DNA from: a virus
Taxonomy: Duplodnaviria > Caudoviricetes
DNA: 64,000 nt
Direction: 5' to 3' (one strand)
IMG/VR virus record: IMGVR_UViG_3300021387_000648
Location: 82,459 to 146,458 of that record
Below the pieces are notes generated by a model. It worked only from the letters and a program-made list of their open reading frames with translations, made no database searches and was not told where the DNA came from. Below, one piece after another: positions 8,202 through 41,954 of this stretch (the stretch's first letter is position 1; each line of letters begins with the position of its first letter). The position numbers and the translations under genes are program-made.

Positions 8202-8230
8202 TTGACAATGTACTAAAATTAGTGTATAAT
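8202..8230 (+). promoter_or_regulatory. consensus sigma-A promoter with palindromic spacer
   Basis: TTGACA-atgtactaaaattagtg(17)-TATAAT. Confidence 0.9.
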
Positions 8231-11842: not shown

Positions 11843-13249
11843 ATGGCGACAAGGACTCTGCGTCCCCAAGAAGGTCCGCAGACGGCTTTTCTTGCCAGTT
11901 CGGCTTCTGTAACCATATATGGCGGAGCTGCGGGCGGAGGAAAAACCTACGCAGAGCTTTTGGCACCGCTGAGATACAAGGACGTCAAGGGCTTTAACTA
12001 TACCATTTTCAGACGCGAGTATAAGCAGATCTTCAACGCTGGCGCACTCTGGGACGAGGCGATGGAGATGTACTCCGGAATCAGGAGGGCCGTGCCGAAG
12101 TACACGACCGGCCAATGGCTGTTCCGGGACAAGAAGGGAAGCGTCGTATCAAAGATTACCTTTGCCCATATCGAGAACGACCTTGCCGTTCACACATATC
12201 AGGGCTCTCAGCTATGCGGCATTGCTTTTGACGAACTGACGCACTTCACGGAAAAGCAGTTCTTCTATATGCTGACCCGTAACAGAAGTACGTGTGGTGT
12301 GCCTCCGTTTGTCCTTGCGACAACGAACCCGGACGCGGACTCCTGGGTGGCAGAATTCATCTCATGGTGGATCGATCAGGAAACCGGATATGCGATACCG
12401 GAAAGAAGCGGCGTGATCCGCTGGATGGTCCGAATTGACGACAAGGTAAGATGGGGCGATTCAAGGGAAGAACTGATAGAGACCTATCACCTTACCACAA
12501 AAGAAGAGCTGGCAATGATCAAGTCGGTGACCTTCATTGCTTCGAGTATCTATGATAACAAGGCCCTGCTGAAATCTGACCCGTCCTATCTTGGCAACCT
12601 GATGATGCAGCCGGAAGTCGAAAGAGAGAGACTTCTCAAAGGGAACTGGAAGATCAAGGCGGCAGCGGGACTCTATTTCAAGCGCTCTCAGGTTACGATG
12701 GTGGATGAAGATCCCTTGATGATGAGGGAGATTGTCCTGACGTGCAGAGCGTGGGACCTTGCGGCAACAGAAGACGACGCGGCAAAAGACCCAGACTACA
12801 CGGCTGGCGTCCTGATGGGCCGATTCAAGAGCGGGGAAGTAATCGTTCTGGATGTGATTAATCAGAGAGTCAAGGCTGGCGAGGTCGAAAAGCTTATCTA
12901 TAACACGACTGTAGCGGACGCGCAGAAATACGGCTTTGCCTACAGAGTCCGTATCCCCCAAGACCCGGGCGCGGCAGGAAAGATCGTTGCCAATTCCTAC
13001 GTGCAGAAGCTTTCCGGGTACTCCGTGATCACAGAGAGAGTAACCGGCAGTAAGGTGAACAGGGCGACGCCGTTTGCGGCCCAGTGGCAGAACGGGCATG
13101 TGAAGGTTTTGAAGGGCGAGTGGAATGATATGTATTTCAAGCAACTTGAGTCATTCCCAGAATCCAAACACGACGATATGGTCGACGGTAGCTCCGACTC
13201 TTTCAATGAACTGAGCAAGCCGCTGTTTGACCCGAGCAATCTCATATAA
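11843..13249 (+). CDS. terL: terminase large subunit
   Basis: YGGAAGGGKT Walker A, FDELTHF Walker B, ATTNP, RAWDLAAT, HDDMVD nuclease. Confidence 0.95.
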   Translation: MATRTLRPQEGPQTAFLASSASVTIYGGAAGGGKTYAELLAPLRYKDVKGFNYTIFRREYKQIFNAGALWDEAMEMYSGIRRAVPKYTTGQWLFRDKKGSVVSKITFAHIENDLAVHTYQGSQLCGIAFDELTHFTEKQFFYMLTRNRSTCGVPPFVLATTNPDADSWVAEFISWWIDQETGYAIPERSGVIRWMVRIDDKVRWGDSREELIETYHLTTKEELAMIKSVTFIASSIYDNKALLKSDPSYLGNLMMQPEVERERLLKGNWKIKAAAGLYFKRSQVTMVDEDPLMMREIVLTCRAWDLAATEDDAAKDPDYTAGVLMGRFKSGEVIVLDVINQRVKAGEVEKLIYNTTVADAQKYGFAYRVRIPQDPGAAGKIVANSYVQKLSGYSVITERVTGSKVNRATPFAAQWQNGHVKVLKGEWNDMYFKQLESFPESKHDDMVDGSSDSFNELSKPLFDPSNLI

Positions 13250-13274
13250 TTCTTTTGTAAGGTTGGTGTATCTG

Positions 13275-14834
13275 ATGGCCGACAAAGATGCGATTAGACG
13301 ATACAAGCAAAGACGTGACGCCAGACTTGGCTTCAAGACATCCATGCACTATGACAGCGTGGACGAGTACAGGAGACGCCGCGCGGAACGTCTTGGAATC
13401 CGCCTTGACGCCGATGACGATGAAAACAAGGGTGGGACAGGCAGACGCGGCGGTCATGGAAACACCAAGATCCCCTTTGGACTCTGCCAAAGAGAGGGGA
13501 TTGAGGTAAAGCCCGGATGGACACCGCAAGACGCATGGAACGCCTTGGAGGGCAAGGGCTATTCTGCGGGCGAGACGTACAAGGAACTGAAGCAGACGGG
13601 CAAGGTCTCCAAGAAAACCGGAGGCACGGCCAAAGCAGCAACGCCGTGGAAGAAAGACTATGCTGCAATGGACTATGATACCATTGCCAAGGAGTACGAG
13701 GACCACAACCGCCGTTATAAGGAGTCAGAAGAAAAGTACCGGACAAAGGACAAGAGCATCAAGGCAATCAATTCGATGGCAAAGCGCATCAAGACCATGA
13801 AGGAGCGCGGCGACTATCACGGAGAGAGCTATGAAGAGCTTGAAAAGGCTGCAAACCAAGATCCGTCTGACCTTGACGGAGACTCTTTTGCCCGGTACTA
13901 TGCGCAGAACTTCGCAAAAAAGGCCATGGACATGTTCGGTCGCGATGTTTTTTCAAAGAGTGATGACGAAATTGCCAAGATGGCGGCGGAGAGAGTGGAA
14001 GAGCTTGAAAACATCAACTTTGCAACGCTTAACGAGGAGCGTGCCGCGATCCAGAAGGCGATGACCGAAAAGGCAAAAGAGAAGTATCCGAATATATCCG
14101 ATTGTGATACGCCTACAGCCTTGGAGGCGAGGCTTCGAGGCGACGACTTCTTCCAGACCGGAGACCTCCTGTCCGGCACGATGGCTTATCATGCTCTTGA
14201 CACAAAAACGATCGGCGGCATCGGGAAGGCGATGGATGGCATTAAGCAGAAGTTCCCGGAACTGAAAGGGAAACTGCATCCATTCCTCGTAGGCGATGAT
14301 GTGGAAGCAAATGCGTATGCCCACTGCGAAATCAGCGCGTGGAGCGATGCGCAGGTTGTTTTGAGCAGCAAGAGATTCGGCGACGGTGAGAAGCTTCAGG
14401 AGAGCCTGAAGAACGACGTGAAGGAAGGCTTCCATCCGAGAGGGACGGCAAGCTTTGAGGCGGTTGTTACTCACGAGTACGGTCACGCAATCGACGACTG
14501 GCTGAGCAAAACGTACAAGGAAGAGCTTGGCGGAAAGCCGTTCTGCCAATATGTGATCGGCAGGATCATGGAAAACCACACGCATGAGGATAAATACAGT
14601 ATCATGCGGAAGGTGAGCAAGTATGCGGTAAACAACAAGTCTCCTGAAGGAATGGAGTTCCTTGGCGAGGCGTTTTCGGAATACTGCTGCGCAAAGAAGC
14701 CGAGACCTATTGCAATGGAAGTGGGGCAGATTATGAAAGAGTTCATCCAAAACCCAAAGAGTGCTCTTGAACCGAAAAAGCCCAAGTGGACGTTTGCACC
14801 GCCAGACGACGAAGACGACGCCCCACTGTTTTAA
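13275..14834 (+). CDS. leader-bearing putative effector with zincin metallopeptidase domain
   Basis: Tandem leader (YKQRRDARL..HYDS, YRRRRAERL..RLDAD), GHGNTKIPFGLC, HEYGH plus EFLGEAF. Confidence 0.7.
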   Translation: MADKDAIRRYKQRRDARLGFKTSMHYDSVDEYRRRRAERLGIRLDADDDENKGGTGRRGGHGNTKIPFGLCQREGIEVKPGWTPQDAWNALEGKGYSAGETYKELKQTGKVSKKTGGTAKAATPWKKDYAAMDYDTIAKEYEDHNRRYKESEEKYRTKDKSIKAINSMAKRIKTMKERGDYHGESYEELEKAANQDPSDLDGDSFARYYAQNFAKKAMDMFGRDVFSKSDDEIAKMAAERVEELENINFATLNEERAAIQKAMTEKAKEKYPNISDCDTPTALEARLRGDDFFQTGDLLSGTMAYHALDTKTIGGIGKAMDGIKQKFPELKGKLHPFLVGDDVEANAYAHCEISAWSDAQVVLSSKRFGDGEKLQESLKNDVKEGFHPRGTASFEAVVTHEYGHAIDDWLSKTYKEELGGKPFCQYVIGRIMENHTHEDKYSIMRKVSKYAVNNKSPEGMEFLGEAFSEYCCAKKPRPIAMEVGQIMKEFIQNPKSALEPKKPKWTFAPPDDEDDAPLF

Positions 14835-19186: not shown

Positions 19187-19219
19187 CCCGGTAACGTTCT
19201 TGGCGTTACCGGGCTTTTT
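19187..19219 (+). terminator. intrinsic terminator
   Basis: CCCGGTAACG-TTCTTGG-CGTTACCGGG-CTTTTT. Confidence 0.8.
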
Positions 19220-19268
19220 CTCTTTATGCGCAGAAGGGCGCTGCCCTTCCGGAAAGGAGGGCGCAACG

Positions 19269-21617
19269 TTGGCAAAGACCAAAACACGGAAACAGGCGCA
19301 GTTCAATATGGACTTCGCGGACGGCACGGCCAAGATGCTGGAATCGTATACGGGTGTGCAGGCGGTGCGTCCGCTGAATGACAGAGTGTTCCGGGGCGAT
19401 GGCGGCTACCAGAACATGCTGACCAAGTACGGAACGTCCAGAGATGCAAGCGAGTACTATAACTACGTTGCGGATGCGGATGTTACCGACATGGAACTGG
19501 CGACGTTCTACGAGCAGAACGGTTTGTTCGCAAGGGTGATTGATGCCCCTGCGGAGGAGGCTGTGAAGCACGGCTTTGAGATTGTCGATCTGGAAGACGA
19601 CAGCATTCAGGGCTTCACCGACGAGTGCCTTGATGAACTGGACTGGGAAGAAACTGCGATGCAGAGCCTTAAATGGGCCAGACTGTTCGGCGGTTCGATT
19701 GCGGTGCTTCTGATCAATGACGGTCGAAGCATCGACAGACCGGTCAACTGGGACCAAATCAAGTCCATCGACGATATCCGGGTGTTCGACCGGTCGGTGA
19801 TTTCACCGGACTATTCGAGCATGTACGAATATGACAACCTCAAAGGACAGGACCCATTCCGGACCAGAGGCAGCAGGCTTGGGTATCCGGAGTGGTTTCA
19901 TGTGTCCGGCAGAAACGGATCGTTCACGGTCCATGAGACCCGGTGCCTGATTTTCCAGAACGGGGTGCTTCCGGAGAACACCACGACATCTCAGTATCAG
20001 TTCTGGGGTATTCCGGAGTACGTCCGAATTAATCGGGCGATCCGGGATGTGGAGATTGCGCACGGGATGGCACCGAAGATGCTTGACCGTTCGGTGCAGG
20101 CGATCTATAAGATGGCAAATCTCTCCAACCTTCTTCAATCGGAACAGGGCGAGGACGTTGTTTTGAAAAGGCTGAAGATCATCGACATGGCAAAGGGCTT
20201 GATGAACAGCATGGTCCTTGACGCCAACGGTGAGGACTACGACTTTAAGTCCTTCTCCTACACCGGAGTCTCCGATGTCATCAACACGACCTGCAACTAT
20301 CTGTCTGCGCTGACCAATATCCCGCAGACAATCCTGTTCGGAAGATCTCCTGCTGGTATGAACGCAACCGGTTCTTCCGATTTGGAAAACTATTACAACT
20401 ATGTAGAGAGAATCCAGAAGCGGATGCTGCGAAGCAATTTGCGGTATCTGCTTTCTGTTATCCTCCAAGCGGGCAAACACACCGGCGAAATCAAGAAGAT
20501 CCCCAAAATCAAGATCGAGTTCAACTCTCTGTGGTCCATGACGGAAACCGAAAAGGTTGCTCTGGATCTCCAGAAGGCACAGGTTGAAAGTGCCAAGGCG
20601 CAGACCGCAGCGGCTTATGTGCAGATGCAGGCAATTGATCCGGGCGAGGTCCGGAAAAAGCTTGCTGATGAAGGTGAGTTCGATGTGGAAACGCTGCTGG
20701 ATGATTTCAGCGAGGAAGAACTGGAAGAGAACGACCCGAAGAATCAGCAGCAGGAGGGCGGAGACCCGATGGCCGCGATGATGGGCGGCGGAGGCGGCGG
20801 TGGCGAGAATCCGTTTGCCGCGATGATGGGCGGTGGCGGTGAACAGCCGCAGGCCCCAGAGAAACCCGCAGAGCCAAAGCAGCCGGAACAGCAGCCGAAG
20901 CATGAGACGCCGAAGCCTCCGAAAGAGGAAGAAGAGCTCAAAAAGCAGCTGACGAAGAAGACAGAAGGCAATTCCCCCGATGCGGCCCCTGAGGCGACAA
21001 AGCTTCCGAAGGACATGGACTTCTCTGATGAGGTAAACAAAGACGCCGAGAACGAGATTTCCGAAGAGCCGAAGGAAGAGATGGTGCAAAAGCCCGAGCC
21101 GCACAAACAGGAAAATGTGTGGGACAGGCTGGAAGTCAAGGACGCCGAAGACGAGAAGCCGATGGGCGGAGTCGGAGTCCTGATCATTCAGGGCAACAAG
21201 ATCCTGACCGGTACCAGAATCGCCGGTGACGCTGGCGGCTATGGCCTGCTTGGCGGCCCGGGCGGTCACATCGAGTACATGGAGACTCCGGAAGAAGCAG
21301 CCTGCCGGGAGACGGAAGAAGAGTTCGGAATTCGACCGATTGACCTGAAGGAAATCGGGACCATCGTTGACGATGACGAATCTGTCAAGGTATCGCATAT
21401 CTTCACGGCGACGATGTACTCCGGAATCCTGCAGTGCGACGACGTGGAGATGAGAGAAGCGGTCTGGCACGACCTTGCCGACCTGACGAACATGCAAGGC
21501 CTGCTGTTCAAGCCGTTTGCCGACAGCCTTAATATCCTTCTTGAAGAAATCTATCGGGAGGATGAGAAAGGCGAGCCGGTCTGCATCTCTGCTGAGGAAG
21601 CGGTCAAGCAGATTTGA
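19269..21617 (+). CDS. portal protein (DUF1073 type) with C-terminal Nudix hydrolase
   Basis: VIDAPAEEAV, WARLFGGS, IPQTILFGRSPAGMNATGSSDLENYY, F.SLW; Nudix box GGHIEYMETPEEAACRETEEEFGI. Confidence 0.9.
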   Translation: MAKTKTRKQAQFNMDFADGTAKMLESYTGVQAVRPLNDRVFRGDGGYQNMLTKYGTSRDASEYYNYVADADVTDMELATFYEQNGLFARVIDAPAEEAVKHGFEIVDLEDDSIQGFTDECLDELDWEETAMQSLKWARLFGGSIAVLLINDGRSIDRPVNWDQIKSIDDIRVFDRSVISPDYSSMYEYDNLKGQDPFRTRGSRLGYPEWFHVSGRNGSFTVHETRCLIFQNGVLPENTTTSQYQFWGIPEYVRINRAIRDVEIAHGMAPKMLDRSVQAIYKMANLSNLLQSEQGEDVVLKRLKIIDMAKGLMNSMVLDANGEDYDFKSFSYTGVSDVINTTCNYLSALTNIPQTILFGRSPAGMNATGSSDLENYYNYVERIQKRMLRSNLRYLLSVILQAGKHTGEIKKIPKIKIEFNSLWSMTETEKVALDLQKAQVESAKAQTAAAYVQMQAIDPGEVRKKLADEGEFDVETLLDDFSEEELEENDPKNQQQEGGDPMAAMMGGGGGGGENPFAAMMGGGGEQPQAPEKPAEPKQPEQQPKHETPKPPKEEEELKKQLTKKTEGNSPDAAPEATKLPKDMDFSDEVNKDAENEISEEPKEEMVQKPEPHKQENVWDRLEVKDAEDEKPMGGVGVLIIQGNKILTGTRIAGDAGGYGLLGGPGGHIEYMETPEEAACRETEEEFGIRPIDLKEIGTIVDDDESVKVSHIFTATMYSGILQCDDVEMREAVWHDLADLTNMQGLLFKPFADSLNILLEEIYREDEKGEPVCISAEEAVKQI

Positions 21618-21629
21618 TATTATAAAGCA

Positions 21630-21658
21630 TTGACAGTGTACTAATTTTAGTGTATAAT
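21630..21658 (+). promoter_or_regulatory. consensus sigma-A promoter with palindromic spacer
   Basis: TTGACA-gtgtactaattttagtg(17)-TATAAT. Confidence 0.9.
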
Positions 21659-21681: not shown

Positions 21682-22503
21682 ATGCTGAGCAAACAAGGCG
21701 AGCGGCAGCTTGATGAGATGGCCGCGATATCTGAAGAGCTTGGCGCTATCGTTCCGAACAACGGCTGGACGCCTTATGCGAGGAAGATCCTGCTGAGGCT
21801 CCAAGAACTGAGTATCAGTCTTTTTGGACAGTCCGAGGTCCGAGAGGATGCAAGCATCGGCGAGATTCTTGCGGCAAAGAAGAATTCGGCCCTGCCGGAT
21901 GACCTGACAGAACAGGAAAAAGCGCAGGGCTATTACTTCCGGACCGTCAACGGAAACAGCATCAAGTTCAGTTCCGAAACAGGACTCCCGGTGGACGGAC
22001 AGCCGAAAGCGTTTGGCGCACAAGACCTGCAAGAGATGGTCGACAACGCTCTGGCAAGTATTGAGGCCAAGCGGGAAGGCAAAGAGCCGGAAGAGCCGGA
22101 ACATAGAGACAGATACAGCAGCCCGTATCCGATGGAGCAGATTTCCGCCGAGGGCGAAAACTTCCCGTGCATAGGGTTTACGGAGAACAACCTTCGCGTT
22201 CACAAGGAGCAAAGGCACCCCGAGCAGTATGCGAACATGACAGCCGAGGAGTATAACGAGCACGCAAAGAAACTTCTGATGAAGAAGTGCGGTCCGGATA
22301 TCTGGGGCTATCGCTGTTCGGACGGGAGCATCTGCCGGTTCAACAGACTCACCGGCGAGTATGCAAAAGGATATCCCGGAGGGAATATCAAAACGTGTTT
22401 CTATCCGACACGGCTGAATGCGGCGGACCCGACAGACATAGATTTGGATTTTGCGAGGAACTATTTTATGGCGAGGAAGGAAGCGGAACAGTATGATCGA
22501 TAG
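21682..22503 (+). CDS. putative nuclease-type toxin/effector
   Basis: Helical leader ending VREDAS, FRTVNGNSI module, C-terminal H...H..Y...YNEHA...GNIKTCFYP toxin-like domain; followed by a CPCC gene. Confidence 0.55.
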   Translation: MLSKQGERQLDEMAAISEELGAIVPNNGWTPYARKILLRLQELSISLFGQSEVREDASIGEILAAKKNSALPDDLTEQEKAQGYYFRTVNGNSIKFSSETGLPVDGQPKAFGAQDLQEMVDNALASIEAKREGKEPEEPEHRDRYSSPYPMEQISAEGENFPCIGFTENNLRVHKEQRHPEQYANMTAEEYNEHAKKLLMKKCGPDIWGYRCSDGSICRFNRLTGEYAKGYPGGNIKTCFYPTRLNAADPTDIDLDFARNYFMARKEAEQYDR

Positions 22504-22762: not shown

Positions 22763-22788
22763 CCTGCCACGTGTAGGAACAGTTTCTG

Positions 22789-22824
22789 AAGACGTTTCGC
22801 AAGAGCGAGGCGTCTTTTGCTTTT
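22789..22824 (+). terminator. intrinsic terminator
   Basis: AAGACGTTTCGC-AAGA-GCGAGGCGTCTT plus T tract. Confidence 0.7.
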
Positions 22825-23645: not shown

Positions 23646-24587
23646 ATGGACGAGAAGCCCGTAAGGGGTATAGATGTACTCCGAAGAAAAAGAGTTCGAA
23701 ACGGACAGATAAGAGAGCACGGCGAAATTTCACCAAGGCGGAGACCGACCTATCCGATCTCCGCCGAGCGTGAATGCATGCGCGGCACTCTGGCCTATAC
23801 AGAGATGGTGATTCAGACGGTGCAGCCCGCGATCAACAGCGTGATGCGGCAGTACGTGGAGCGCGGCGAGGTACGGCAGGACGCGACCGGAGAGTTTATT
23901 TCAACCGCGAGAGGACTTCGCTTGGCGGCGGCTGAAAGGCTGGACCGTAAAAAAGGCGCTCTGGCAAAGCTTGAAAGGCAGTATGCCAGAAGCGGAAGCC
24001 TTGCCAAAAACCACTCGATCGAAGACTGGAATGATCAGGTCCGTGATGCCCTTGGCTTTGAGATCAACGTCAAGAGCTATCAAGAGGATATGGAAAGCAT
24101 GGTCCAGCGCTGGATTCACGAAAACGTGAGCAAGATCCAGTCGATTCCGAACGAGTACCTTGCCGAGGTCGAGTCGATTATCCGGTGGGGCTACGAAACC
24201 AAACAGCCGAAGGTCAACGTCTACCGGAGACTGGAAAAACTGATCGGCCTGACAAAGTCCAAAGCAATGATGATTGCAAGGGACCAGTTGGGAACACTCA
24301 ATTGCCAGATGACGAGATACGAGCACGAAAGCGCTGGCGTCGGCAAGTATAAGTGGATCACCAAGCGTGACAGTCGAGTAAGAGACAGCCACAGGGCCTT
24401 GCATGGAACGGTCCACAAGTGGAGCGAGCCGCCTGCCGAGTGGTACATGACGAAATCAAGAGGGATTGTGTACACTGGAAGATACTGCCACCCGGGCGAA
24501 AGCTACGGCTGTCGCTGCGTAGCGTCGCCGGTATTTGATATAGACATTGCAAAACGCTATCTGGCGAACAAGTTTAAGCCTTTGTAG
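23646..24587 (+). CDS. phage head morphogenesis protein (MuF/SPP1 gp7 family)
   Basis: IARDQ, YKWITKRDSRVRDSH, HPGESYGCRC. Confidence 0.92.
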   Translation: MDEKPVRGIDVLRRKRVRNGQIREHGEISPRRRPTYPISAERECMRGTLAYTEMVIQTVQPAINSVMRQYVERGEVRQDATGEFISTARGLRLAAAERLDRKKGALAKLERQYARSGSLAKNHSIEDWNDQVRDALGFEINVKSYQEDMESMVQRWIHENVSKIQSIPNEYLAEVESIIRWGYETKQPKVNVYRRLEKLIGLTKSKAMMIARDQLGTLNCQMTRYEHESAGVGKYKWITKRDSRVRDSHRALHGTVHKWSEPPAEWYMTKSRGIVYTGRYCHPGESYGCRCVASPVFDIDIAKRYLANKFKPL

Positions 24588-24600
24588 AGTGAGAAAAGTG

Positions 24601-24629
24601 TTGACACTGTACTAATATTAGTGTATAAT
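24601..24629 (+). promoter_or_regulatory. consensus sigma-A promoter with palindromic spacer
   Basis: TTGACA-ctgtactaatattagtg(17)-TATAAT. Confidence 0.9.
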
Positions 24630-26683: not shown

Positions 26684-26893
26684 ATGATTGGTCCGTCCCC
26701 TGAGTTCACAAGCAGCAAGTACTTTGTCGCAGATCCCGAGTGGCACATGCTTCCGGGTGCTTCCGACAAGGACAAGAAGGAACTGGAAGAGTTCATGAAC
26801 GGCGGCGGTTATCCGAACATCTGGAAGTCGGAGAACCCGAAAATGAAGAAGCCCTACTACACATGGTCGGGTAAGATCGTCGATAAAGGTTAA
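26684..26893 (+). CDS. small hypothetical protein
   Basis: GGAGG RBS, 69 aa. Confidence 0.65.
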   Translation: MIGPSPEFTSSKYFVADPEWHMLPGASDKDKKELEEFMNGGGYPNIWKSENPKMKKPYYTWSGKIVDKG

Positions 26894-26898
26894 TAAAC

Positions 26899-26927
26899 AA
26901 AGCGTTGCTGACGGGCAGCGCTTTTTT
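26899..26927 (+). terminator. intrinsic terminator
   Basis: AAAGCGTTGC-TGACGG-GCAGCGCTTT plus T tract. Confidence 0.75.
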
Positions 26928-26950: not shown

Positions 26951-29900
26951 TTGCATAAGATCGGCTACATCACTGCAGAGCTGAGCCTGCTGTGCCAAGA
27001 GTATAAGACCGCTGAGGAGCCGAAGGCGTCCAAGTTGGGCGAGGAGATCCGGAAACTGGTAGAGTCCCTGACAGAGAGCTTTGATCAGGTTCGTAATGAC
27101 GGCGTGTTTTTCGCAGGTGACTTGGACGACCATCACCACGAATACGAAACCATCTATCCGGGCGATGAGCGCAAAGAGCACGATGACGCAGATTCCAGTG
27201 AATATGACTGGGTCACGATCAAAGGTACGCACGTTCCCCTTGATGATGAGGGAAACATGACCGGCGAGGTTGCCAAAAAGATCAAGGCTACCTCAAAGGG
27301 ACCGGCCAAAGCAGGACAGCGCGAACTGAATCTGAGCGACAGCACAAAGCCTAAGAGAACCGACTATGACTTGGACCCGGCAGACGGGCACCAAGAGTTC
27401 ATAAGCAAGAATGTGGACAAGCTCATGCCCATCTTTGAAGAGAAGGGCATGGACGGCGTGAAAGAAGAATGGCTCAAGGCCAGACTTCAAAACGCGACCG
27501 GAAACCTCCGACGCATCAGTGATCAGGAAACCGACGAGATCCTGCAAAACGGCATTGACAAAGGTGTCGCCAGCATGTGGATCACCGAGTATGATCCGGG
27601 CGTCAAGGAAAAGCTTGCACATCAGCTGACCAAAAACAGCGAGATACATAACGCGGCATTGAACGTTATGTATAAGAACTATCAATACCACTGCAAAGCG
27701 CAGGGCGAAGAGGATCTGCCGTTTGAAGACTTCCTCGTTACACCGGTTAAGATGTATAGAGGCGGAAGCGGCAAGGAGCACAAGAAGGCCCTTGCGTTTT
27801 CTTCTTATACGTTTGACAGAGCAGCTGCGGAAAAGTTCAAAGCCAGCAACGAAGGCCACGGAAGAGCCACTGACGACGGCGTGATTTACGAGGCGGAGAT
27901 CCGCCCGATTGACACCTTCGGCTCTTTGAACACGAGCGGCGAGATGGAGATTTTTGTCCCCGGCTTTATTGCACCGAACGGAAGATTCGATGCGGACGAA
28001 GAGTCGGAAGGTGATTCCTCATCCAAAAACCACGGCAACACCAAACTGCCTTATGGCCTGTGCAGGAAGTACGGCATTGAGGTGCAAAACGGCTGGACCC
28101 CGAGGGAAGCGTGGGAAGCGCTGGAAGGGAAAGGCGTGAGCGCTGCTGAGGAATACAAGAAACTCCGCGAGCGTGGGAAAGCAGAACAAAAAACTGTCGT
28201 TTCCCCGGAAAGACACACTGCTGCGAAGAAGTCCTGCATAGAAAAGCAGACTGAAGTAGCCCAGCAGACGAAAGAGCTTAATCGAAAGATCATCGATGCG
28301 ACGAACCGCCGAATTGATACAGAGTTTGGTCCTTTGTCACGTGCCAAAAGTGAACTTCTCCAAGCCGAACGCGGTGCCGTTGAAGCGAAAAGGAGAAAAG
28401 ACCTGATCGCAGGCAGGACCAAAGAAGAGCTTGAATCGGAAGTGGATGCTCTGTATAAACGTGTTCGCGAGGCCCAAGAGCTTAATGAAAAGCTCTACGA
28501 CAGGCCGGAACGCGGAACACCGGAACGCGAGGCATGGAACGCATGGTGCGAGCAGCACGGCGGCAGAAGCGAGATTATCAAGAAAATCGACACTGAGCTC
28601 TTATCCAAGGACGGAGCTCTTGAAAAATACAACGCTCTGAGCAATATCCTCAATAACGACTACGACCGCTACGGTCCGGACGGCGGATATAAAGAGGCCA
28701 GCAGAAAAGTACGGGGCGTCAAGAAAAAGATTGCCGGGTACGAAAAAGAGGTTCAGGACGCAGAGGCCGAGGTTGAAGAATACAAACGGCAGATTGCGGA
28801 AGCGAAAGAAAGTCTGAAGCCTGTCCGGCAGGAATACTACGATTCCGTCACGGAAAGATTTCCAACATTCGACGACTGTAAGACGGTCGAAGATATCGCG
28901 GAGCGGCTTTCTGCTGAGGGTGCCTTTGACGGGGACGACATCGTGTGCGACTTTGGACACAAGGTGTCTCTGGATACCGCAAAGGCGACAGCGAAGTCCT
29001 TTGTAGACTATATCAATAAGGTGCCTTTCATGAAAGGGCACTGCGGGCGTCTTGTGATTGAAGACATGACAGCCGAGGACGCAGGCGTCTACGGCTACTC
29101 ACAGAGAGGCAAGGGCGTCCGCCTGAATAACCGGTTCTACGGAGACGAGCAGAAGTTTGAAGAGTCTTGGCAGCGGTGCATGACGGACAAGTTCCATCCG
29201 CCCGGACTCACAAAGGAAAGTGTTGTCCAGCATGAGTATTCTCATCAGTTGGACGACTACATGTCAGATGCCTTGAAGCTCCACAGCGGTAATTTTTCCA
29301 CGCTGGTGATGAACGAGGTTATGTCCAAGCTCGGAATGAGCAGGGACGAGTGCAAGAGAGCCGTGTCCGGATACTCCGTCAACAACAAAAGCGGCGGTGA
29401 CGTCGAGTGGTTTGCGGAAGCGATGTCCGAGTATACGGGCAGCGCGAATCCGAGACCGGTTGCAGTTGCGGTCGGCGAATGCGTTATGAAATACGCCCAG
29501 CAACTTCAGACGCAGCGTCATGACGCAGCTGATGACGATGGACGGTGGGTAACCACAGAAAACGACCATCATGTGCATATCAATGAGCAGGGAATCCCGG
29601 ACAAGGGAAATCCTTATGTGCTTTCCACCATGCGCGGCGAAGGTCCAAACCCGAAAAGCAGGGAAGAGCTTGTGAGGAACCGCCTGCGGAAAAGAAGCAG
29701 ACAGGTGAAAGCCCTATTCCAGAGCCTTGAAGATGCGGAATGTGACGAAGAAGCCGCATACGATGAGAGAAACAAGGCGGACAATGCCCTTCGCCGTTTG
29801 AATCTCCAAAGGAAGATCGTTGCGAACGACAAGAAGATGCTTGAAGACCTCGGCTATGGCGAAGGCGATAAAGAGGTCATGGAGAGAGACCTTGAAGAGC

Positions 29901-31306
29901 TCAAATCCGAAATGGACAGCATTCTTCAAGGCAGGAGCAAGTGGAGCCTCCAAGACGAAGAGAAAAAATCATTTACTGAAGTCGAAGCCAAGTACAATAA
30001 GCTTGACTTTGCGATCAAGTCTTATGACGAGTGCTACGGTCCGGATGCGTTCTCTGAGGAAAAGGTGAGTCAGGCGGAGGAACACGCCGCCAAGGCCAGA
30101 CAGAGGGCCCACGATGCAACCGTGAGACGAGAGAAGGCGCACAAGGAAGCACACGCGGTTTCCGGAAAACTGGATCAGGAGCGGTTTCTTACAAGTGATG
30201 AGAGGTCATCCGCGATTCAGGAGATCCAGCATTCGTCCACATGGGACGGAATGTCCGATGAGGCAAAGGCATCTGCGTTTGAAAGCCTGCAAGGGGCGTC
30301 TGATGCGCAGCTGCTTCTGTTGCAAAAGACAGCCGGTCATGTTAGAATCATGGACGGCGAAGGAAGGGTTTCTCCCTCCGGCGCTGATTCGTTCTATTCC
30401 AAAGGAACAGGGACGATCGTGATGTCGGCAGAGGACATGCGGAAGCCAAGTATCCTGTGGCATGAATACGGTCACTATCTGGATGACCCGGATCAGAGCG
30501 ACTGCTATTCGCACAAGAAAAGAAACTTGTCCAGCGATACGGAATACAGGTCGTCTCTGTCGCAGGCCTTGTATGATGGAAGCGCGATGCACAGCAAAGA
30601 ATCCGCAGCCGATATGAATAAGCTGCTGCGGGAGTCCGGCGTCGAAGACTACACAATCGAAGAGAGTCCTTACGGGCATTATCTGATTGTGAAGAATTCC
30701 GAAGGCGGGATGATAGAAGATGCCTACGACACGGCGTTCTTCAAGATTGCGTCTGCCGTGGACAGCCAGTTCAACAAGTTCCAGTTCGCTGACAGCGAGT
30801 ACGACGACTATCTGAGGTCGATCGGCTGTCCGCTTTCCAGCGAAGAGCCAAAGTATGGCGACTACATAGAGTTCTATTATACGCCGAAGCGGAGGCTTCT
30901 CCGGGAACGTGAGAAACACAAGGGCGCAAGAGAAGAGTACAATCGTCTGCATCGAGAATACAGAGAGAAGAGAGAAGCCGCGATTGCCAAGAACCCGGAC
31001 GAGTACTACGACAAAACCCGGGAATACGAGGAGCGGTGCAGGCAGCGCGAGAAAATGATCGGTCCGGTTTCGGATATCATTTGCGGTATGTTCAACGGAC
31101 GCGGACCTTGGGTTTGCGGCGGTCACAGTTCGGATTACTATTCCAGAAGCACGGCACCATACAGCGAGGCGGTAGCCAACTACCACCAGATGCGCATGAT
31201 GGGCTGGACCGAAGGACTCAATCTCCTGAAGTCTATTGCGCCGAGTGTCCACAACAGTCTTGAAAAAGCCTATGACGAATGGCTTTGGAGGAATGTAGAC
31301 CTATGA
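26951..31306 (+). CDS. polyvalent putative effector: ART-like domain plus two zincin domains
   Basis: Modules start after HDDAD/RFDAD/RHDAAD; MYRG..FSSYT..EMEI (R-S-E ART-like); HEYSH..EWFAEA; HEYGH..SEAVANY. Confidence 0.7.
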   Translation: MHKIGYITAELSLLCQEYKTAEEPKASKLGEEIRKLVESLTESFDQVRNDGVFFAGDLDDHHHEYETIYPGDERKEHDDADSSEYDWVTIKGTHVPLDDEGNMTGEVAKKIKATSKGPAKAGQRELNLSDSTKPKRTDYDLDPADGHQEFISKNVDKLMPIFEEKGMDGVKEEWLKARLQNATGNLRRISDQETDEILQNGIDKGVASMWITEYDPGVKEKLAHQLTKNSEIHNAALNVMYKNYQYHCKAQGEEDLPFEDFLVTPVKMYRGGSGKEHKKALAFSSYTFDRAAAEKFKASNEGHGRATDDGVIYEAEIRPIDTFGSLNTSGEMEIFVPGFIAPNGRFDADEESEGDSSSKNHGNTKLPYGLCRKYGIEVQNGWTPREAWEALEGKGVSAAEEYKKLRERGKAEQKTVVSPERHTAAKKSCIEKQTEVAQQTKELNRKIIDATNRRIDTEFGPLSRAKSELLQAERGAVEAKRRKDLIAGRTKEELESEVDALYKRVREAQELNEKLYDRPERGTPEREAWNAWCEQHGGRSEIIKKIDTELLSKDGALEKYNALSNILNNDYDRYGPDGGYKEASRKVRGVKKKIAGYEKEVQDAEAEVEEYKRQIAEAKESLKPVRQEYYDSVTERFPTFDDCKTVEDIAERLSAEGAFDGDDIVCDFGHKVSLDTAKATAKSFVDYINKVPFMKGHCGRLVIEDMTAEDAGVYGYSQRGKGVRLNNRFYGDEQKFEESWQRCMTDKFHPPGLTKESVVQHEYSHQLDDYMSDALKLHSGNFSTLVMNEVMSKLGMSRDECKRAVSGYSVNNKSGGDVEWFAEAMSEYTGSANPRPVAVAVGECVMKYAQQLQTQRHDAADDDGRWVTTENDHHVHINEQGIPDKGNPYVLSTMRGEGPNPKSREELVRNRLRKRSRQVKALFQSLEDAECDEEAAYDERNKADNALRRLNLQRKIVANDKKMLEDLGYGEGDKEVMERDLEELKSEMDSILQGRSKWSLQDEEKKSFTEVEAKYNKLDFAIKSYDECYGPDAFSEEKVSQAEEHAAKARQRAHDATVRREKAHKEAHAVSGKLDQERFLTSDERSSAIQEIQHSSTWDGMSDEAKASAFESLQGASDAQLLLLQKTAGHVRIMDGEGRVSPSGADSFYSKGTGTIVMSAEDMRKPSILWHEYGHYLDDPDQSDCYSHKKRNLSSDTEYRSSLSQALYDGSAMHSKESAADMNKLLRESGVEDYTIEESPYGHYLIVKNSEGGMIEDAYDTAFFKIASAVDSQFNKFQFADSEYDDYLRSIGCPLSSEEPKYGDYIEFYYTPKRRLLREREKHKGAREEYNRLHREYREKREAAIAKNPDEYYDKTREYEERCRQREKMIGPVSDIICGMFNGRGPWVCGGHSSDYYSRSTAPYSEAVANYHQMRMMGWTEGLNLLKSIAPSVHNSLEKAYDEWLWRNVDL

Positions 31307-31626
31307 TGACAGAACAGAACGAACTAATCAAGCTGTTGAATGACGGCTTCTTTAACGATGCTGAATTCTTCCAGAAAGCCTACATCGACAAAAAGGGCGT
31401 CATGGATATGGACGGCGTCACGAGGCTTTGGGAGTCTTTCCGTGGCAGAAAGTACACGATGAAGTACTATATGGTCCACGGGAACACGATCCCAACCTGG
31501 GGAGTACCAAGCAGGTACAGAGACCCCGACGAAGCAGAAAAGGTTTACAAAGCCTGCCTTGAAGAAGGCGTAACTTGGCAGGAGAAGCTTAACTACAAGC
31601 CTCCGAAGTCAAACGAGGTTTGGTAA
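31303..31626 (+). CDS. hypothetical protein, putative immunity partner
   Basis: ATGA overlap with the upstream stop, GGAGG RBS. Confidence 0.65.
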   Translation: MMTEQNELIKLLNDGFFNDAEFFQKAYIDKKGVMDMDGVTRLWESFRGRKYTMKYYMVHGNTIPTWGVPSRYRDPDEAEKVYKACLEEGVTWQEKLNYKPPKSNEVW

Positions 31627-31645
31627 ACCGCATAATATTGTGAAG

Positions 31646-31676
31646 AAGCACTGAGCAAAAAGCTCGGTGCTTTTTT
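31646..31676 (+). terminator. intrinsic terminator
   Basis: AAGCACTGAGC-AAAAA-GCTCGGTGCTT plus T tract. Confidence 0.8.
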
Positions 31677-31744
31677 AATACCCGCGAGATGCTTAAAAGC
31701 ATTTTGCGAAAGCTGCACTGTTTCTTGGAAGGAGAGATGCAGAG

Positions 31745-33316
31745 ATGATACTTCACGGAGTCGTGCGCTACGACAGCATGCCCATGCCGAGAGCGTACTT
31801 CACCCCCGAAGGTTACCTGAAGGACAGGCCGATTCTGACCTCCTGCGGAATCTTCGAGTATACAAATCCTGACGGGAGCGTCAGGCGGGAGCTTCGGCTT
31901 CCGGAGGATGTTTTTTCTCCTGAAAGCCTGAGAAGTTACATCGGAAAGCCTGTTGTTCTGACTCATGAAGCGGGGCTGATTGACAAGAACAACGTGGCTG
32001 AGAATCAGATTGGAACTATTCTCAGCGAGGGAGAGCGAAGTGGCAATGACGTCAAGGCCGAGATCATCATCCATGACACGGACGCTATGAAGTCTGCTGG
32101 GCTGAAAGAGCTGAGTCTTGGATATAACCTCGATTTGGATGAAACGCCCGGCGTCTGGAATGGTCAACGCTACGACGCTGTTCAGAAGAACATCCGCATT
32201 AACCACCTTGCTCTTGTTCGCGAGGCGCGAGCAGGAGAACAGGCGCGGCTGAATCTTGACAGCCGCGACCAAGTAAATTTGCTCAAAGGGGGAAAAAGAA
32301 TGAGCAAGAAAACCAAGCGCGTTCCTCACGCTGATGCCGTTCTTACTGACGAAGAGCTGGATAAGGCGCTTGAGGAGTACGACAAGAAGTACGGAAAGAC
32401 CGAACCCGCCGCCCAGACCGACGCAGACGATGAAGAGGTTGTCAAAACCGAAGAAGTCGTCGAGCAGCCCGCCCCGTCTGATGACGTGGAAGCAACGGTC
32501 GAGGCAGTCAAAGCACGCCGCGACAAGCGCGACGAAGAGGGAGATCCGGAAGACGTCGATGCTGCAATGGGCATGATTGCACATCAGGACGAAGACATCC
32601 AGACCCTTATTGATCTGGTGGACACCCTCCGTGCCCGTCTGGACATGACCAAAGCCGCCAATTCCGACGAGGAAGAAGTCCCGGCTGAGGAAGAGCCCAC
32701 CGAGGAAGTTCCCGAGGAAGAAGTCAAAGCGGACGAAGTCGACGACCTCGAAACCCTGAAAGGCAACGAGGACGAAGACGACGTCGTCGAGGAAGAGATT
32801 CCGGAAGACGAAGAGGAAGAGCTTGTGACCGACGCCGACGAGGACGAAGAGGTTATCCCCGAAGACGAGGAAAACCCTGACGAGGACGACACCGTGGACA
32901 AGGAAGAAGAGGAAGATCTGTTCGCCGAAGACGGCGAGGATTGCGAAGACTACACCGGCAAGCGTATGAACGCCGACTCGGTGGAGCGTCTGGTCAACAT
33001 GAAGATCGCCCTTGGCGAACTCGGTGACAGAGTCGGAATCAAGGGTCTGGCCCGCAAGCCGGTCCGTGACGCGAAGATCGCAATTATCCGTGCAGCAGGT
33101 CTTAAGACCCGCATGGACGGAAAGAGCGACCGTTACGTCAACGAGGCCTTTGGTCTTGCCCGCGACGTGATCAAGGCCCGCAGCCGCAAGACCACTGCGG
33201 ACCAGAAGAGACAGATGTACAACAAGAAAACTGCACACATGGACTCTGTTGACGGCGGATCTGCCTTCGAAGCCCGCGAGCGCATGATCGCCAAATACAA
33301 CAAGGGTCGCAAGTAA
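31745..33316 (+). CDS. DUF2213 prohead protease/scaffold protein
   Basis: TPEGYL, ELRLPEDVF, LTH, KELSLGY, NHLALVREARAG; long acidic scaffold tail. Confidence 0.88.
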   Translation: MILHGVVRYDSMPMPRAYFTPEGYLKDRPILTSCGIFEYTNPDGSVRRELRLPEDVFSPESLRSYIGKPVVLTHEAGLIDKNNVAENQIGTILSEGERSGNDVKAEIIIHDTDAMKSAGLKELSLGYNLDLDETPGVWNGQRYDAVQKNIRINHLALVREARAGEQARLNLDSRDQVNLLKGGKRMSKKTKRVPHADAVLTDEELDKALEEYDKKYGKTEPAAQTDADDEEVVKTEEVVEQPAPSDDVEATVEAVKARRDKRDEEGDPEDVDAAMGMIAHQDEDIQTLIDLVDTLRARLDMTKAANSDEEEVPAEEEPTEEVPEEEVKADEVDDLETLKGNEDEDDVVEEEIPEDEEEELVTDADEDEEVIPEDEENPDEDDTVDKEEEEDLFAEDGEDCEDYTGKRMNADSVERLVNMKIALGELGDRVGIKGLARKPVRDAKIAIIRAAGLKTRMDGKSDRYVNEAFGLARDVIKARSRKTTADQKRQMYNKKTAHMDSVDGGSAFEARERMIAKYNKGRK

Positions 33317-39506: not shown

Positions 39507-41954
39507 GTGGAAGATGCGATTACAGTAATGGCGAATCTATCCACAAAAGGCTTTGAAAAAGGCACAAAAGAAATGACGCAGGCGATCAAGTCGCTGACCA
39601 GAACCGCGAAGTCTTTTGGTAGAACAATGCTTTCCACGATCGTCGGTGTCGGCTCGGTTATTGGTGTTCTGACGAAGTCCATCAGCACCTACATGTCACA
39701 GAATGAAGCGCTCAGTCAAAGGATGAACGCGATCTGGACGGCTCTCGGAAATGTACTCGGTCCTATCATCGAGCAGATTATTGAGTGGATTTCCACAGCG
39801 GTATCGTATTTTCTTGGATTCCTGCAATTACTTGGTGTTACCGGAAAGTCTGCTTCCGAACTGTCGAAGCAGGCAAAGAAGAATACGCAGGAACTTCAGA
39901 GAACCTTGCTTGGGTTCGATGAACTGAATGTTTTGCAGGACAATACGCAGCAAGATAAAAGCAACCCATTGCGGGACCTTGAACCGTCCGAGTTCATGAA
40001 GAAGATTGCCGACCTGCTGAAAAACGGAATGTTTGAAGAGGCCGGAAGAGAGCTTGCGCGAAAACTGAATGAGATGATAGCAAAGATCCCGTGGGGAGAA
40101 CTTGGCGCAAAGCTCAGATACTACTTCATGGGGCTCCTCGATCTGCTTTATGGGTTCGTCGATGAATTCGACTGGAAGGCGCTTGGCGCAGGAATCAGGG
40201 ACTTTATTGTAAACCTGTTTTCAAATCCTCAGGAGATTGCAGAGAAGATCATGCGGCTGATCAAAGCTGCATGGGATGCGGTGCTTGATTTTATCTGGGG
40301 CCTGTTCTGGGGCGATACGGAAGAGGAACCCCCTCTGATTGCAGCCTTCAGAAAGCTCGGCGATAAGATCTATGAGCTGGCTCAGGATATTCTTCCGATA
40401 CTGGAAAGGCTGTATAACGACTTCATAAAACCGACTATAGACTGGCTGGTAAATGAGGCGCTTCCGAAAGTTGTAGACTTTCTTACGAAGGTCGTAGATA
40501 AGATCGATGCGTGGATCAATAAGAATCCGGACAAAGCGGTAGAGCTCTTGAAAGGTGCTGTAGAACTGCTGATCGGTCTGAAAGTTGGTGCGTGGTTTAG
40601 GGATCTGATTACCGGAGCGACGAACGCAATCAAGCCGGTTACAGACCTCGTAAAGGCTCTTGCAGGGGGCGGCGCTGGCGGTGCGGCTGGCGGTGCCGGA
40701 GCAGCCGGAAGTAGTGTTGCAGGAGCTTCCACTGCAGCATCTACGGGGGCGGCTGGCGCTGCATCAGCAATTGGCGTTTTGGGCGCTGCGGCTGGCGGTG
40801 CTGCTGCTGGACTTGGAGTTTATGCTGTTTCTTTGTGGGATGCAAAACTCAGTTCGGATTATGCCAAAGAAGCGATGGATGAGACGGGCGGCTCTGTCGA
40901 ACTGATGGCGCAGAAGATGAACGAATTCCAAGTGACCGCAAGTCATTTGGATGAGTGTATGAACGACACCACCGGATACACTACCGCACTTGGATGGAGC
41001 ATGCAGGAAAGCAGATATGCTATGGAAGCATATAACGAATTCCTGCCGATCCTCGCCGAACAGCTTGGACTTACCACAGAACAGCTTCAAGCTCAGATTG
41101 AAGCCGCAGGCGGAGACGTTACGAAGATCGAAGCCCTCGGGAATGCGATGGCTACTTCCGCGCAGGCGATGGAAGAAAACCGGGAGTCGATTGCGAAAAC
41201 CAATGAGGAGTACAAAACCACATCTGGCGAAATCACGCAAAACGCTCAGGAAATGGCTGCTGGCGTAAACGCTGCGACCGAGGAGATCAAGACTCAGACG
41301 GAAGCCAACACGGCAGCGGCAAACACTGCGGCAACCCAAAACGCAGAGGCTATGAATCAGAACGTGTCTGGACAGTACAGCGAACTGGAAGGCGAGGCGG
41401 CGACCCACGCTGAAAACATTCTGACAAAGACCGATTCAACATTCCAGCAGGTAGCAGGAAACGCAAGCATCTGGGGCTCAGATATGGTAGGCAACTTTAT
41501 TTATGGTATTCAGTCGCAGATGCCAGCGCTCGAAGCACAGCTTCAGGCAATCGCGAATATGATCAACGCCTACATCCACTTCACAAAGCCTGACAAGGGA
41601 CCTCTGGCGGACTTTGACACCTATGGCCCTGACATGATCAAGGAATTCGTCGGCGGCATTGAAAGCCAAAAGGGAAAGCTGGAACAGGCTATGACGGACA
41701 TTGCGGAAACCGTATCGTTCCGGATGCCTGCTGTTGCGGGCGGCTCTGTTGTCCCGTACAGCGTGTCCAGCGCTGGCGGAGGCTCTGGCGGAGCGGACCT
41801 TGGAAGCATGATGGAACGGTTCATGTCTGCACTGGATACCTTCGAGGATTCAATCCAGAACATGCAGCTTGTCGCCCAGTTCGGCAGTTTCCGTGTCATC
41901 GCGGAGGCAGTGGAAAAAGAGATGCGGCGAAAAGCGAGATCCGAAGGGAGGTAA
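39507..41954 (+). CDS. tail tape measure protein
   Basis: Helical Ala/Gly-rich, LLGFDELNVL, HFTKPDKGPL. Confidence 0.85.
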   Translation: MEDAITVMANLSTKGFEKGTKEMTQAIKSLTRTAKSFGRTMLSTIVGVGSVIGVLTKSISTYMSQNEALSQRMNAIWTALGNVLGPIIEQIIEWISTAVSYFLGFLQLLGVTGKSASELSKQAKKNTQELQRTLLGFDELNVLQDNTQQDKSNPLRDLEPSEFMKKIADLLKNGMFEEAGRELARKLNEMIAKIPWGELGAKLRYYFMGLLDLLYGFVDEFDWKALGAGIRDFIVNLFSNPQEIAEKIMRLIKAAWDAVLDFIWGLFWGDTEEEPPLIAAFRKLGDKIYELAQDILPILERLYNDFIKPTIDWLVNEALPKVVDFLTKVVDKIDAWINKNPDKAVELLKGAVELLIGLKVGAWFRDLITGATNAIKPVTDLVKALAGGGAGGAAGGAGAAGSSVAGASTAASTGAAGAASAIGVLGAAAGGAAAGLGVYAVSLWDAKLSSDYAKEAMDETGGSVELMAQKMNEFQVTASHLDECMNDTTGYTTALGWSMQESRYAMEAYNEFLPILAEQLGLTTEQLQAQIEAAGGDVTKIEALGNAMATSAQAMEENRESIAKTNEEYKTTSGEITQNAQEMAAGVNAATEEIKTQTEANTAAANTAATQNAEAMNQNVSGQYSELEGEAATHAENILTKTDSTFQQVAGNASIWGSDMVGNFIYGIQSQMPALEAQLQAIANMINAYIHFTKPDKGPLADFDTYGPDMIKEFVGGIESQKGKLEQAMTDIAETVSFRMPAVAGGSVVPYSVSSAGGGSGGADLGSMMERFMSALDTFEDSIQNMQLVAQFGSFRVIAEAVEKEMRRKARSEGR

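Follow-up and report, generated by a model that had tools for sequence, protein, structure and literature searches.

The 1451-amino-acid (aa) protein described here is encoded in the last 64 kb (64,000 nucleotides [nt]; here called the window) of the 146,458-bp virus record IMGVR_UViG_3300021387_000648, whose completeness is rated 92%, and we consider it moderately probable that it is a polyvalent and polymorphic capsid-cargo protein of a rumen Clostridia-type phage. It would consist of exchangeable cassettes carrying injected enzymes, the last of which, zincin 2, would be silenced by a partner protein. Its open reading frame (ORF) spans positions 26951 to 31306 on the plus strand, on which the long ORFs of the window lie without exception and to which all features described below belong. 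The frame is open and the TTG start aligns with the ATG of homologs, which begin with MH.I.Y at the same site, so the ORF can be taken as real; recoding or a split gene is ruled out by this open frame, which runs colinear with those of homologs. An initial annotation of this locus, made from the sequence, had proposed a three-effector polyprotein of fused cassettes, packaged as one chain and cut into separate effectors, and the motifs it quoted are all present where it placed them.

The protein starts with an N-domain (aa 1 to 76, 26951 to 27178), in which two helices are followed by an FFAGDLD..HEYE..YP motif. This domain is the constant first part in all syntenic relatives and is a candidate capsid-trafficking domain; behind it the chain appears to be built from three exchangeable cassettes, each opening with a short adaptor (a W-x-T beta-hairpin or an HGNT helix-loop-helix) and linked to its neighbor by what would be a flexible R-x-D-[A/S] motif and acidic linker. 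Searching 5.8 billion proteins yielded 22 relatives, and the cassettes of relatives were mapped by BLAST and motif extraction (P0001 is the window protein, other P numbers denote related proteins, and L numbers denote related contigs). At least eight relatives of ~1200 aa (P0005 to P0012) are composed of the N-domain with cassettes 2 and 3 and lack exactly aa ~80 to 345, whereas P0013 to P0015 have a PF03496 ADP-ribosyltransferase (ART) in place of zincin 2 (cassette 3), directly after RHDAADDD..GRWVTT, and P0023 lacks the zincin 1 core. One relative contains only the N-domain, the HGNT element, a hairpin, and cassette 3, another starts with a leader, a hairpin, and an ART cassette, and a five-cassette relative is encoded upstream of terminase. 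In P0018, P0019, and P0037 the ART cassette sits on a portal-NUDIX protein, the C terminus of which runs via SRMDADDD..GWIT into the ART cassette and more modules. Relatives with modules as separate genes were looked for and found: the ART cassette occurs as a 289-aa stand-alone protein (P0028), and the cassette of zincin 1 is also a separate gene in the same phage (13227 to 14834). The joints are thus the places where cassettes swap in evolution, with module boundaries in homologs coinciding with the joint motifs (the exact loss of aa ~80 to 345 and the swap after RHDAADDD), and the loss, replacement, or relocation of single cassettes strongly supports the view that the protein is a fusion of cassettes.

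Cassette 1 contains an ART-like module (aa 119 to 347, 27305 to 27991), with a helical subdomain followed by a beta core and ending in APNG-RFD, and its sequence motifs predict, with good probability, an ADP-ribosyltransferase of the R-S-E type. These motifs are MYRG (aa 268 to 271; R270), FSSYT (aa 283 to 287; S284, S285, and T287), and EMEI (aa 331 to 334; E331 and E333), and the order R270-G271, S285/T287, and E331/E333 is the R-S-E order of ADP-ribosyltransferases. A profile of aa 119 to 347 collects 293 clusters at 50% identity, with proteins of 121 to 3748 residues, and across 40 diverse and 20 giant family members W, K, Y-R-G, S-[YF]-[ST], D-T-x-G, and E-x-E are invariant or nearly so. 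Among named sets, the language-model neighbors include the ART families DRAT (0.93), ADPrib_exo_Tox (0.87), and Mod_ADP_RT (0.87), together with DUF4765 (0.91), a set with no known function. Giant family members carry LPD38 (5 of 20), PBECR3, ART-PolyVal, portal, and NUDIX domains, and the co-occurrence with LPD38, PBECR3, and ART-PolyVal ties the family to the published polyvalent proteins. LPD38 was also considered as the identity of the module itself and is ruled out, as the two do not overlap in the giant relatives.

Cassettes 2 and 3 are each modeled as a zinc metalloprotease of the lethal-factor/Pro-Pro-endopeptidase fold with a long alpha-helical hairpin in front of it. Helical hairpin (coiled-coil) region 1 (aa 419 to 636, 28205 to 28858), modeled by AlphaFold2 (AF2) with a predicted local distance difference test score (pLDDT) of about 90, precedes zincin 1 (aa 641 to 854, 28871 to 29512), which has HEYSH at aa 761 to 765 and EWFAEA at aa 819 to 824. 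Region 2 (aa 904 to 1069, 29660 to 30157), which resembles the alpha-hairpins of AcrA/MexA and the colicin R-domain, precedes zincin 2 (aa 1082 to 1451, 30194 to 31303), in which HEYGH occupies aa 1171 to 1175 and SEAVANY contains the invariant E1406. The AF2 model of aa 600 to 1451 (14 sequences) has a mean pLDDT of 84, and ~170 to 220 residues of long alpha-hairpins precede each zincin, ~390 residues altogether, in keeping with the coiled coils that the initial annotation placed there. The zincin 1 model matches the fold of the anthrax lethal factor catalytic domain and PPEP-1 by VIA-align, with the HExxH helix and the downstream Glu ligand helix on the zincin fold. Zincin 2 is homologous to zincin 1 (hhalign, 99.7%; E, 1e-25) and owes its fold assignment to that homology, the VIA-align matches being those of zincin 1; its HEYGH and E1406 are invariant, with a long insert (~200 residues) between them. 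Both zincins that had been proposed from their HEYSH and HEYGH motifs are therefore upheld, one by predicted fold and the other by homology.

The 1451-aa protein also has weak matches to PHROG proteases (E, 6e-5 and 1e-3). Foldseek with the model of aa 600 to 1451 gives no match at E ≤ 0.001, Pfam with the whole protein at E up to 1 gives no credible family and no PolyVal model, and single-sequence PDB searches with both zincin parts give none. We take anthrax lethal factor and PPEP-1/2/3 to be the peptidase M34 fold group, and the proteins described here differ from them in sequence (identity only 13 to 16%, with no sequence-level Pfam or PDB match), in the ~200-residue insert of zincin 2, and in the long helical hairpin before both zincins. 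The separate gene at 13227 to 14834 codes for a stand-alone paralog of cassette 2, with an Arg-rich leader, RLDADDD, an HGNT adaptor, a helical region, and an HEYGH zincin. The paralogy claimed between module 2 and the 13275 domain of this gene is real, as the HGNT parts share 40% identity (E, 1e-22) and the zincin parts 28% across 250 aa (E, 1e-25).

The 3′ end of the 1451-aa ORF is overlapped by 28 nt by a 115-aa partner gene (31279 to 31626), which the initial annotation had overlooked. Complex prediction scores the partner with zincin 2 at 0.70, compared with 0.00 for the best control; of 80 solved complexes, 58 attain this mark, as do 2 of 110 mismatched pairs, counts that are only rough because our own alignments were supplied. 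The runs share at least 78% of contacts, the partner has a pLDDT of at least 76, and the predicted interface lies over the active-site cleft, taking in H1175 of HEYGH, the strands beside the catalytic helix, and the loop that leads into the Glu helix. Wherever a relative ends in zincin 2, a partner homolog comes next (L001 and L009, with a partial copy in L004); the locus of the ART-ended P0014 is syntenic apart from this, its overlapping gene in the same position coding for an unrelated Cys-rich protein of 65 aa. Such co-variation of partner and C-terminal cassette is the pattern expected of toxin-immunity or protease-inhibitor pairs, and together with the predicted binding it suggests that zincin 2 is a harmful effector, or a protease needing restraint, and not an inert structural domain. 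A 214-aa gene lies between the partner and DUF2213 genes in L001 (14079 to 14723) and L008 (7876 to 8520), and looks by sequence like an HNH/AP2-type homing endonuclease; it is absent from the corresponding site of the window, where 31626 to 31745 is intergenic.

The joints themselves follow a common pattern. Joint 1 (27179 to 27235) has HDDAD (aa 77 to 81) with an acidic stretch and the beta-hairpin adaptor WVTIKGTHV (aa 87 to 95, nt 27209); joint 2 (27983 to 27997) has RFDAD (aa 345 to 349), followed by an acidic/Ser linker and the HGNTKLPYGLC adaptor (28025 to 28183; motif at aa 361 to 371), a helix-loop-helix that is HeH/SAP-like by its sequence pattern; and joint 3 (29516 to 29623) has RHDAADDD (aa 856 to 863), the WVTTENDHHVHI hairpin (aa 866 to 877), and a DKGNPYVL stretch. 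Joint 3 (aa 854 to 891) is the sole long low-confidence stretch in the model of aa 600 to 1451 (pLDDT, 33 to 46), with a predicted beta-hairpin at W-V-T/H-V-H-I, suggesting a flexible linker, one element of which probably takes up its fold on a partner. Translating the window in six frames gives three instances of the W-x-T...H pattern, each of them in a plus-strand gene and shortly after an [RH]xDA-type motif (~0.03 matches are expected by chance, by rough estimate), and the HGNT element recurs at the DNA level as a 110-nt repeat, five copies of which lie in the window, in genes 9028, 13227, 14906, and 22843 and, as the fifth, the 1451-aa gene. Across 168 related proteins, in which W-x-T, HGNT, GNFGHxGRPG, and HPRxxxGxF were counted as adaptors, 113 of 179 adaptors have [RKHN]-x-D-[ASG] no more than 25 residues upstream, compared with 9.9% of random windows. 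A DNA comparison of the three joints finds ~10 nt shared and no recombination-grade repeat.

Modules of this kind also head whole proteins, as the initial annotation had noted. Seven separate window genes (starting at 4745, 6985, 9028, 13227, 14906, 22843, and 24634, and spanning 4745 to 26268) begin with Y-[RK]-x-R-R-x-x-R-[LI]...R-x-D-[A/S] and continue with HGNT, a related helix-loop-helix, or a W-x-T hairpin, and 40 of 118 W-x-T motifs in related proteins are at most 60 residues from an N terminus. The internal joints of the 1451-aa protein thus resemble the N termini of stand-alone cargo. Relatives with 50% identity have internal joints with a full Arg-rich leader (e.g., AWRERRDLRR... and EAYRARRQKRLD...), and in the window protein only the R-x-D-A and acidic part of the leader is left. 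Several leader-tagged genes have C-terminal domains that match C-terminal parts of PHROG "head morphogenesis" (MuF-fused) families. Other junction tags, HPR-x3-G-[KR]-F and GGPGSGNFGHxGRPGxVGGS, are present at the W-x-T position in relatives (L003:9409-9834, P0031, and P0019), the latter tag three times in P0019.

The gene is located in a head block with the order TerL (large terminase, 11843 to 13249), portal with a C-terminal NUDIX domain (19200 to 21617), MuF as its own gene (23646 to 24587), the 1451-aa gene, DUF2213 (31745 to 33316), a cement protein, and the major capsid protein (MCP; PF09950, 33855 to 34892), and this order is kept on four related metagenomic contigs. The DUF2213 protein (Pfam PF09979, "Pa193_gp24") is of scaffold type and has an N-domain with H-E and LSLGY motifs. 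The C terminus of the portal is taken to lie inside the capsid, and both the position of the gene between MuF and DUF2213 and the portal-fused relatives favor the initial proposal of packaging as one chain, a support that is contextual; packaging of the protein in the capsid is likely. One homolog is labeled as originating from a Clostridium sp. metagenome-assembled genome. A tape measure or tail protein is ruled out, as the gene is in the wrong block and the probable tape measure is at 39507 to 41954. A 69-aa ORF (26685 to 26893) directly upstream, with 69-aa genes at the same position in L001 (9727 to 9936) and L008 (3720 to 3929), might be the partner of an internal cassette. The C-terminal 120 residues of a 273-aa protein (21682 to 22503) match the C-terminal end of the PHROG portal family phrog_15528 (E, 2e-18), showing that this domain is portal-fused in other phages.

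Expression of the gene is probably by read-through at a low level. A terminator-like hairpin with a T-run (26899 to 26924) is 25 nt 5′ of the start codon, there is no consensus promoter between it and the gene, and the low expression implied by read-through would fit a low-copy cargo. Strong terminator-like hairpins are located directly 5′ of two cargo genes (22788 to 22817 for gene 22843, and 26899 to 26924 for the 1451-aa gene) and may throttle expression of both. A 29-nt element present in three copies (8202 to 8230, 21630 to 21658, and 24601 to 24629), each just 5′ of the start of a cargo or head-block gene, is a perfect TTGACA-17-TATAAT promoter with a conserved spacer, the copies being 90 to 93% identical.

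In the mechanism that we propose, the protein would be produced late and at a low level and incorporated into the procapsid alongside the many leader-tagged cargo proteins that this phage encodes. It would enter the next host with the DNA, where its enzymes would modify or cleave host proteins. In the producing cell, zincin 2 is predicted to be kept inactive by the 115-aa partner, which is coupled to it in translation and would sit over its active site. The joints may well act additionally as docking and/or cutting points inside the capsid, a step whose chances we judge to be roughly balanced.

Several observations pull against this interpretation. Packaging, injection, and cleavage are all inferred, and a tblastn search of the 1451-aa protein against 50,697 phage records gives zero matches, leaving it with no cultured-phage relative. 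For the ART-like module, the R-to-S spacing is only 14 residues, shorter than in classical ARTs; the 40-sequence family profile has no credible PDB, Pfam, or PHROG-function match; a single-sequence PDB search of the ART part gives no match; the AF2 model of aa 1 to 600 has a pLDDT of 25 to 65 in the ART part, too poor for a structure search; and hhalign of the family against the PF03496-type domain of P0013 to P0015 gives a probability of 0.3%, a weak test, as the template is three near-identical rows. The initial call of an ART-like domain is therefore borne out in its conserved motifs, the ART fold being putative. P0001 also lacks the Arg-rich leader that heads other cargo genes. With regard to cleavage, stand-alone ART proteins share an N-G-x-x-D-[SA] tail, showing that the motif need not be a cut site, and Pa193 gp24, of the DUF2213 family, has been described as a putative scaffolding protein only, with its cleavage status unknown (PMC11456595).

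Cutting at the joints, the last part of the initial proposal, we see as about evenly poised, and the facts about the joints are as compatible with a domain tail plus recombination joint as with a cut site. For the head protease there is one candidate, the N-domain of the DUF2213 protein; in PHROGs the protein carries the label head maturation protease, it shares its H-E and LSLGY motifs with Pa193 gp24, and a literature search on DUF2213 found no protease biochemistry. The N-arm of the MCP (aa 30 to 38) reads ARFDSADAA, with RFDSAD in L001 and KQDAA where a homolog of solved structure (PDB 9kmg) aligns, and R-x-D-[A/S] occurs also in the scaffold protein; the N-arm motif may be the same as that of the cargo joints, which is suggestive, and a literature search on PDB 9KMG for cleavage of the MCP N-arm found nothing relevant. 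It is possible, with less than an even chance, that the same cargo remains an uncleaved multienzyme chain like the phage N4 virion RNA polymerase (vRNAP), with the joints being linkers or recombination joints (compare the VENN and PT-TG pre-toxin motifs). N4 vRNAP, ArdC, and TraC1 are transferred unprocessed (Iyer et al., PMC5512222), the literature gives no protease specificity for DUF2213, the joints are evolutionary breakpoints, and the ART module always ends in ...APNG-x-x-D-[SAG] whatever comes next, in stand-alone proteins even a few residues before the stop codon. However, the motif recurs at the leader ends of separate cargo genes and a recombination joint alone leaves the conserved R-x-D unexplained; the internal joints keep R-x-D-A and drop the Arg-rich helix, as expected if the helix is an address and R-x-D-A a cut site; and one gene in L004 begins exactly at M-D-A-D-E-E-E. 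A bolder extension is that R-x-D-[A/S], the acidic stretch, and an adaptor (W-x-T, HGNT, or GNFGHxGRPG) form a general "dock and cut" code, with the N-domain being a new trafficking domain and zincin 2 and the 115-aa protein a protease-inhibitor switch, which we offer tentatively and regard as rather doubtful. If it were true, any number of exchangeable effectors could be loaded into a capsid without MuF or portal fusion, and zincin 2 would be silent until sealed in the capsid or injected.

The co-variation of the C-terminal cassette with the downstream gene and their predicted binding would also suit an unpackaged polymorphic toxin, released at lysis or acting in the lysogen or producer, that serves in bacterial competition with the 115-aa protein as its immunity protein, and competition roles of MuF toxins have been discussed (Jamet et al., PMC5576092). 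The 1451-aa protein lacks a secretion signal and any known trafficking domain, it occupies a fixed place inside the head-assembly block, and the same cassettes are fused to the portal C terminus and so taken as capsid-internal, all of which make such a toxin very improbable. Another reading is that of a mainly structural head or ejection protein, with the hairpins as an internal core or trans-envelope conduit and the enzyme-like domains degenerate, to which the ~390 residues of long alpha-hairpins resembling AcrA/MexA and colicin R-domains lend themselves. This is hardly credible, as distant relatives keep HExxH and the catalytic Glu, as well as the R, S, and ExE residues, without change, and as cassettes can be lost or exchanged, which would not be expected of a structural protein that is essential.

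Read as a packaged cargo, the protein can be placed beside several known systems. Polyvalent proteins (Iyer, Burroughs, Anand, de Souza, and Aravind 2017, PMC5512222) likewise combine several unrelated effector enzymes in one polypeptide, are encoded beside portal or terminase genes, and are predicted to be packaged and injected; that work already proposed the pairing of ART with zincin, a location among head genes, injection, and metallopeptidase processing. The 1451-aa protein has the two or more disparate activities that define them (the zincins by fold and hhalign, the ART by motifs only) and is set among phage packaging and virion genes. It differs in matching no Pfam PolyVal model, in having an ART of the R-S-E type versus the published H-Y-D type, in the repeated joint (R-x-D-[A/S], acidic stretch, and W-x-T, HGNT, or GNFGH adaptor), for which we found no description, and in the predicted cognate partner gene of its C-terminal cassette. 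Head-packaged ARTs and portal-fused NUDIX domains have also been described already (PMC9503650). Like the MuF polymorphic toxins (Jamet et al. 2017, PMC5576092), it has a constant N-terminal part, a variable C-terminal toxin, and an immunity-like gene downstream, which is cognate by co-variation and predicted binding; metallopeptidases and ARTs are common in MuF toxins, which are encoded in the head module and for which delivery with the DNA has been proposed. Unlike these, it has no PF04233, MuF being a separate gene, and it has three cassettes versus one and a 76-residue helical N-domain without known family. Phage T4 Alt and IPI-III are alike in concept, as a head-packaged ART or cargo with a short N-terminal address, trimming by the head protease, and injection with the DNA; they differ in the motif ([LI]-x-x-E versus R-x-D-[A/S]), the head and protease family, and the multiple cassettes found here, and the capsid-targeting sequence and gp21 cleavage of T4 have counterparts in the 1451-aa protein that are presumptive. 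The departures from published descriptions are thus the joint pattern, the Pfam-less ART-like family, the lethal-factor-fold zincins behind helical hairpins, and the predicted inhibitor.

Phage-delivered proteins decide the first minutes of infection, and to our knowledge, beyond T4, N4, P1, and the jumbo phages, few have been identified. This one gene shows an uncultured gut/rumen phage lineage assembling and reshuffling putatively injected enzymes at recognizable joints. It defines a large Pfam-less ART-like family (293 clusters) that is virion-associated by context, places lethal-factor-fold proteases among putative phage cargo, and makes zincin 2 and the 115-aa protein a concrete candidate protease-inhibitor pair. 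If the joints are true docking or cutting signals, they would serve as a transferable tag by which capsids could be loaded with foreign proteins, and cargo genes in metagenomes could be recognized by them.

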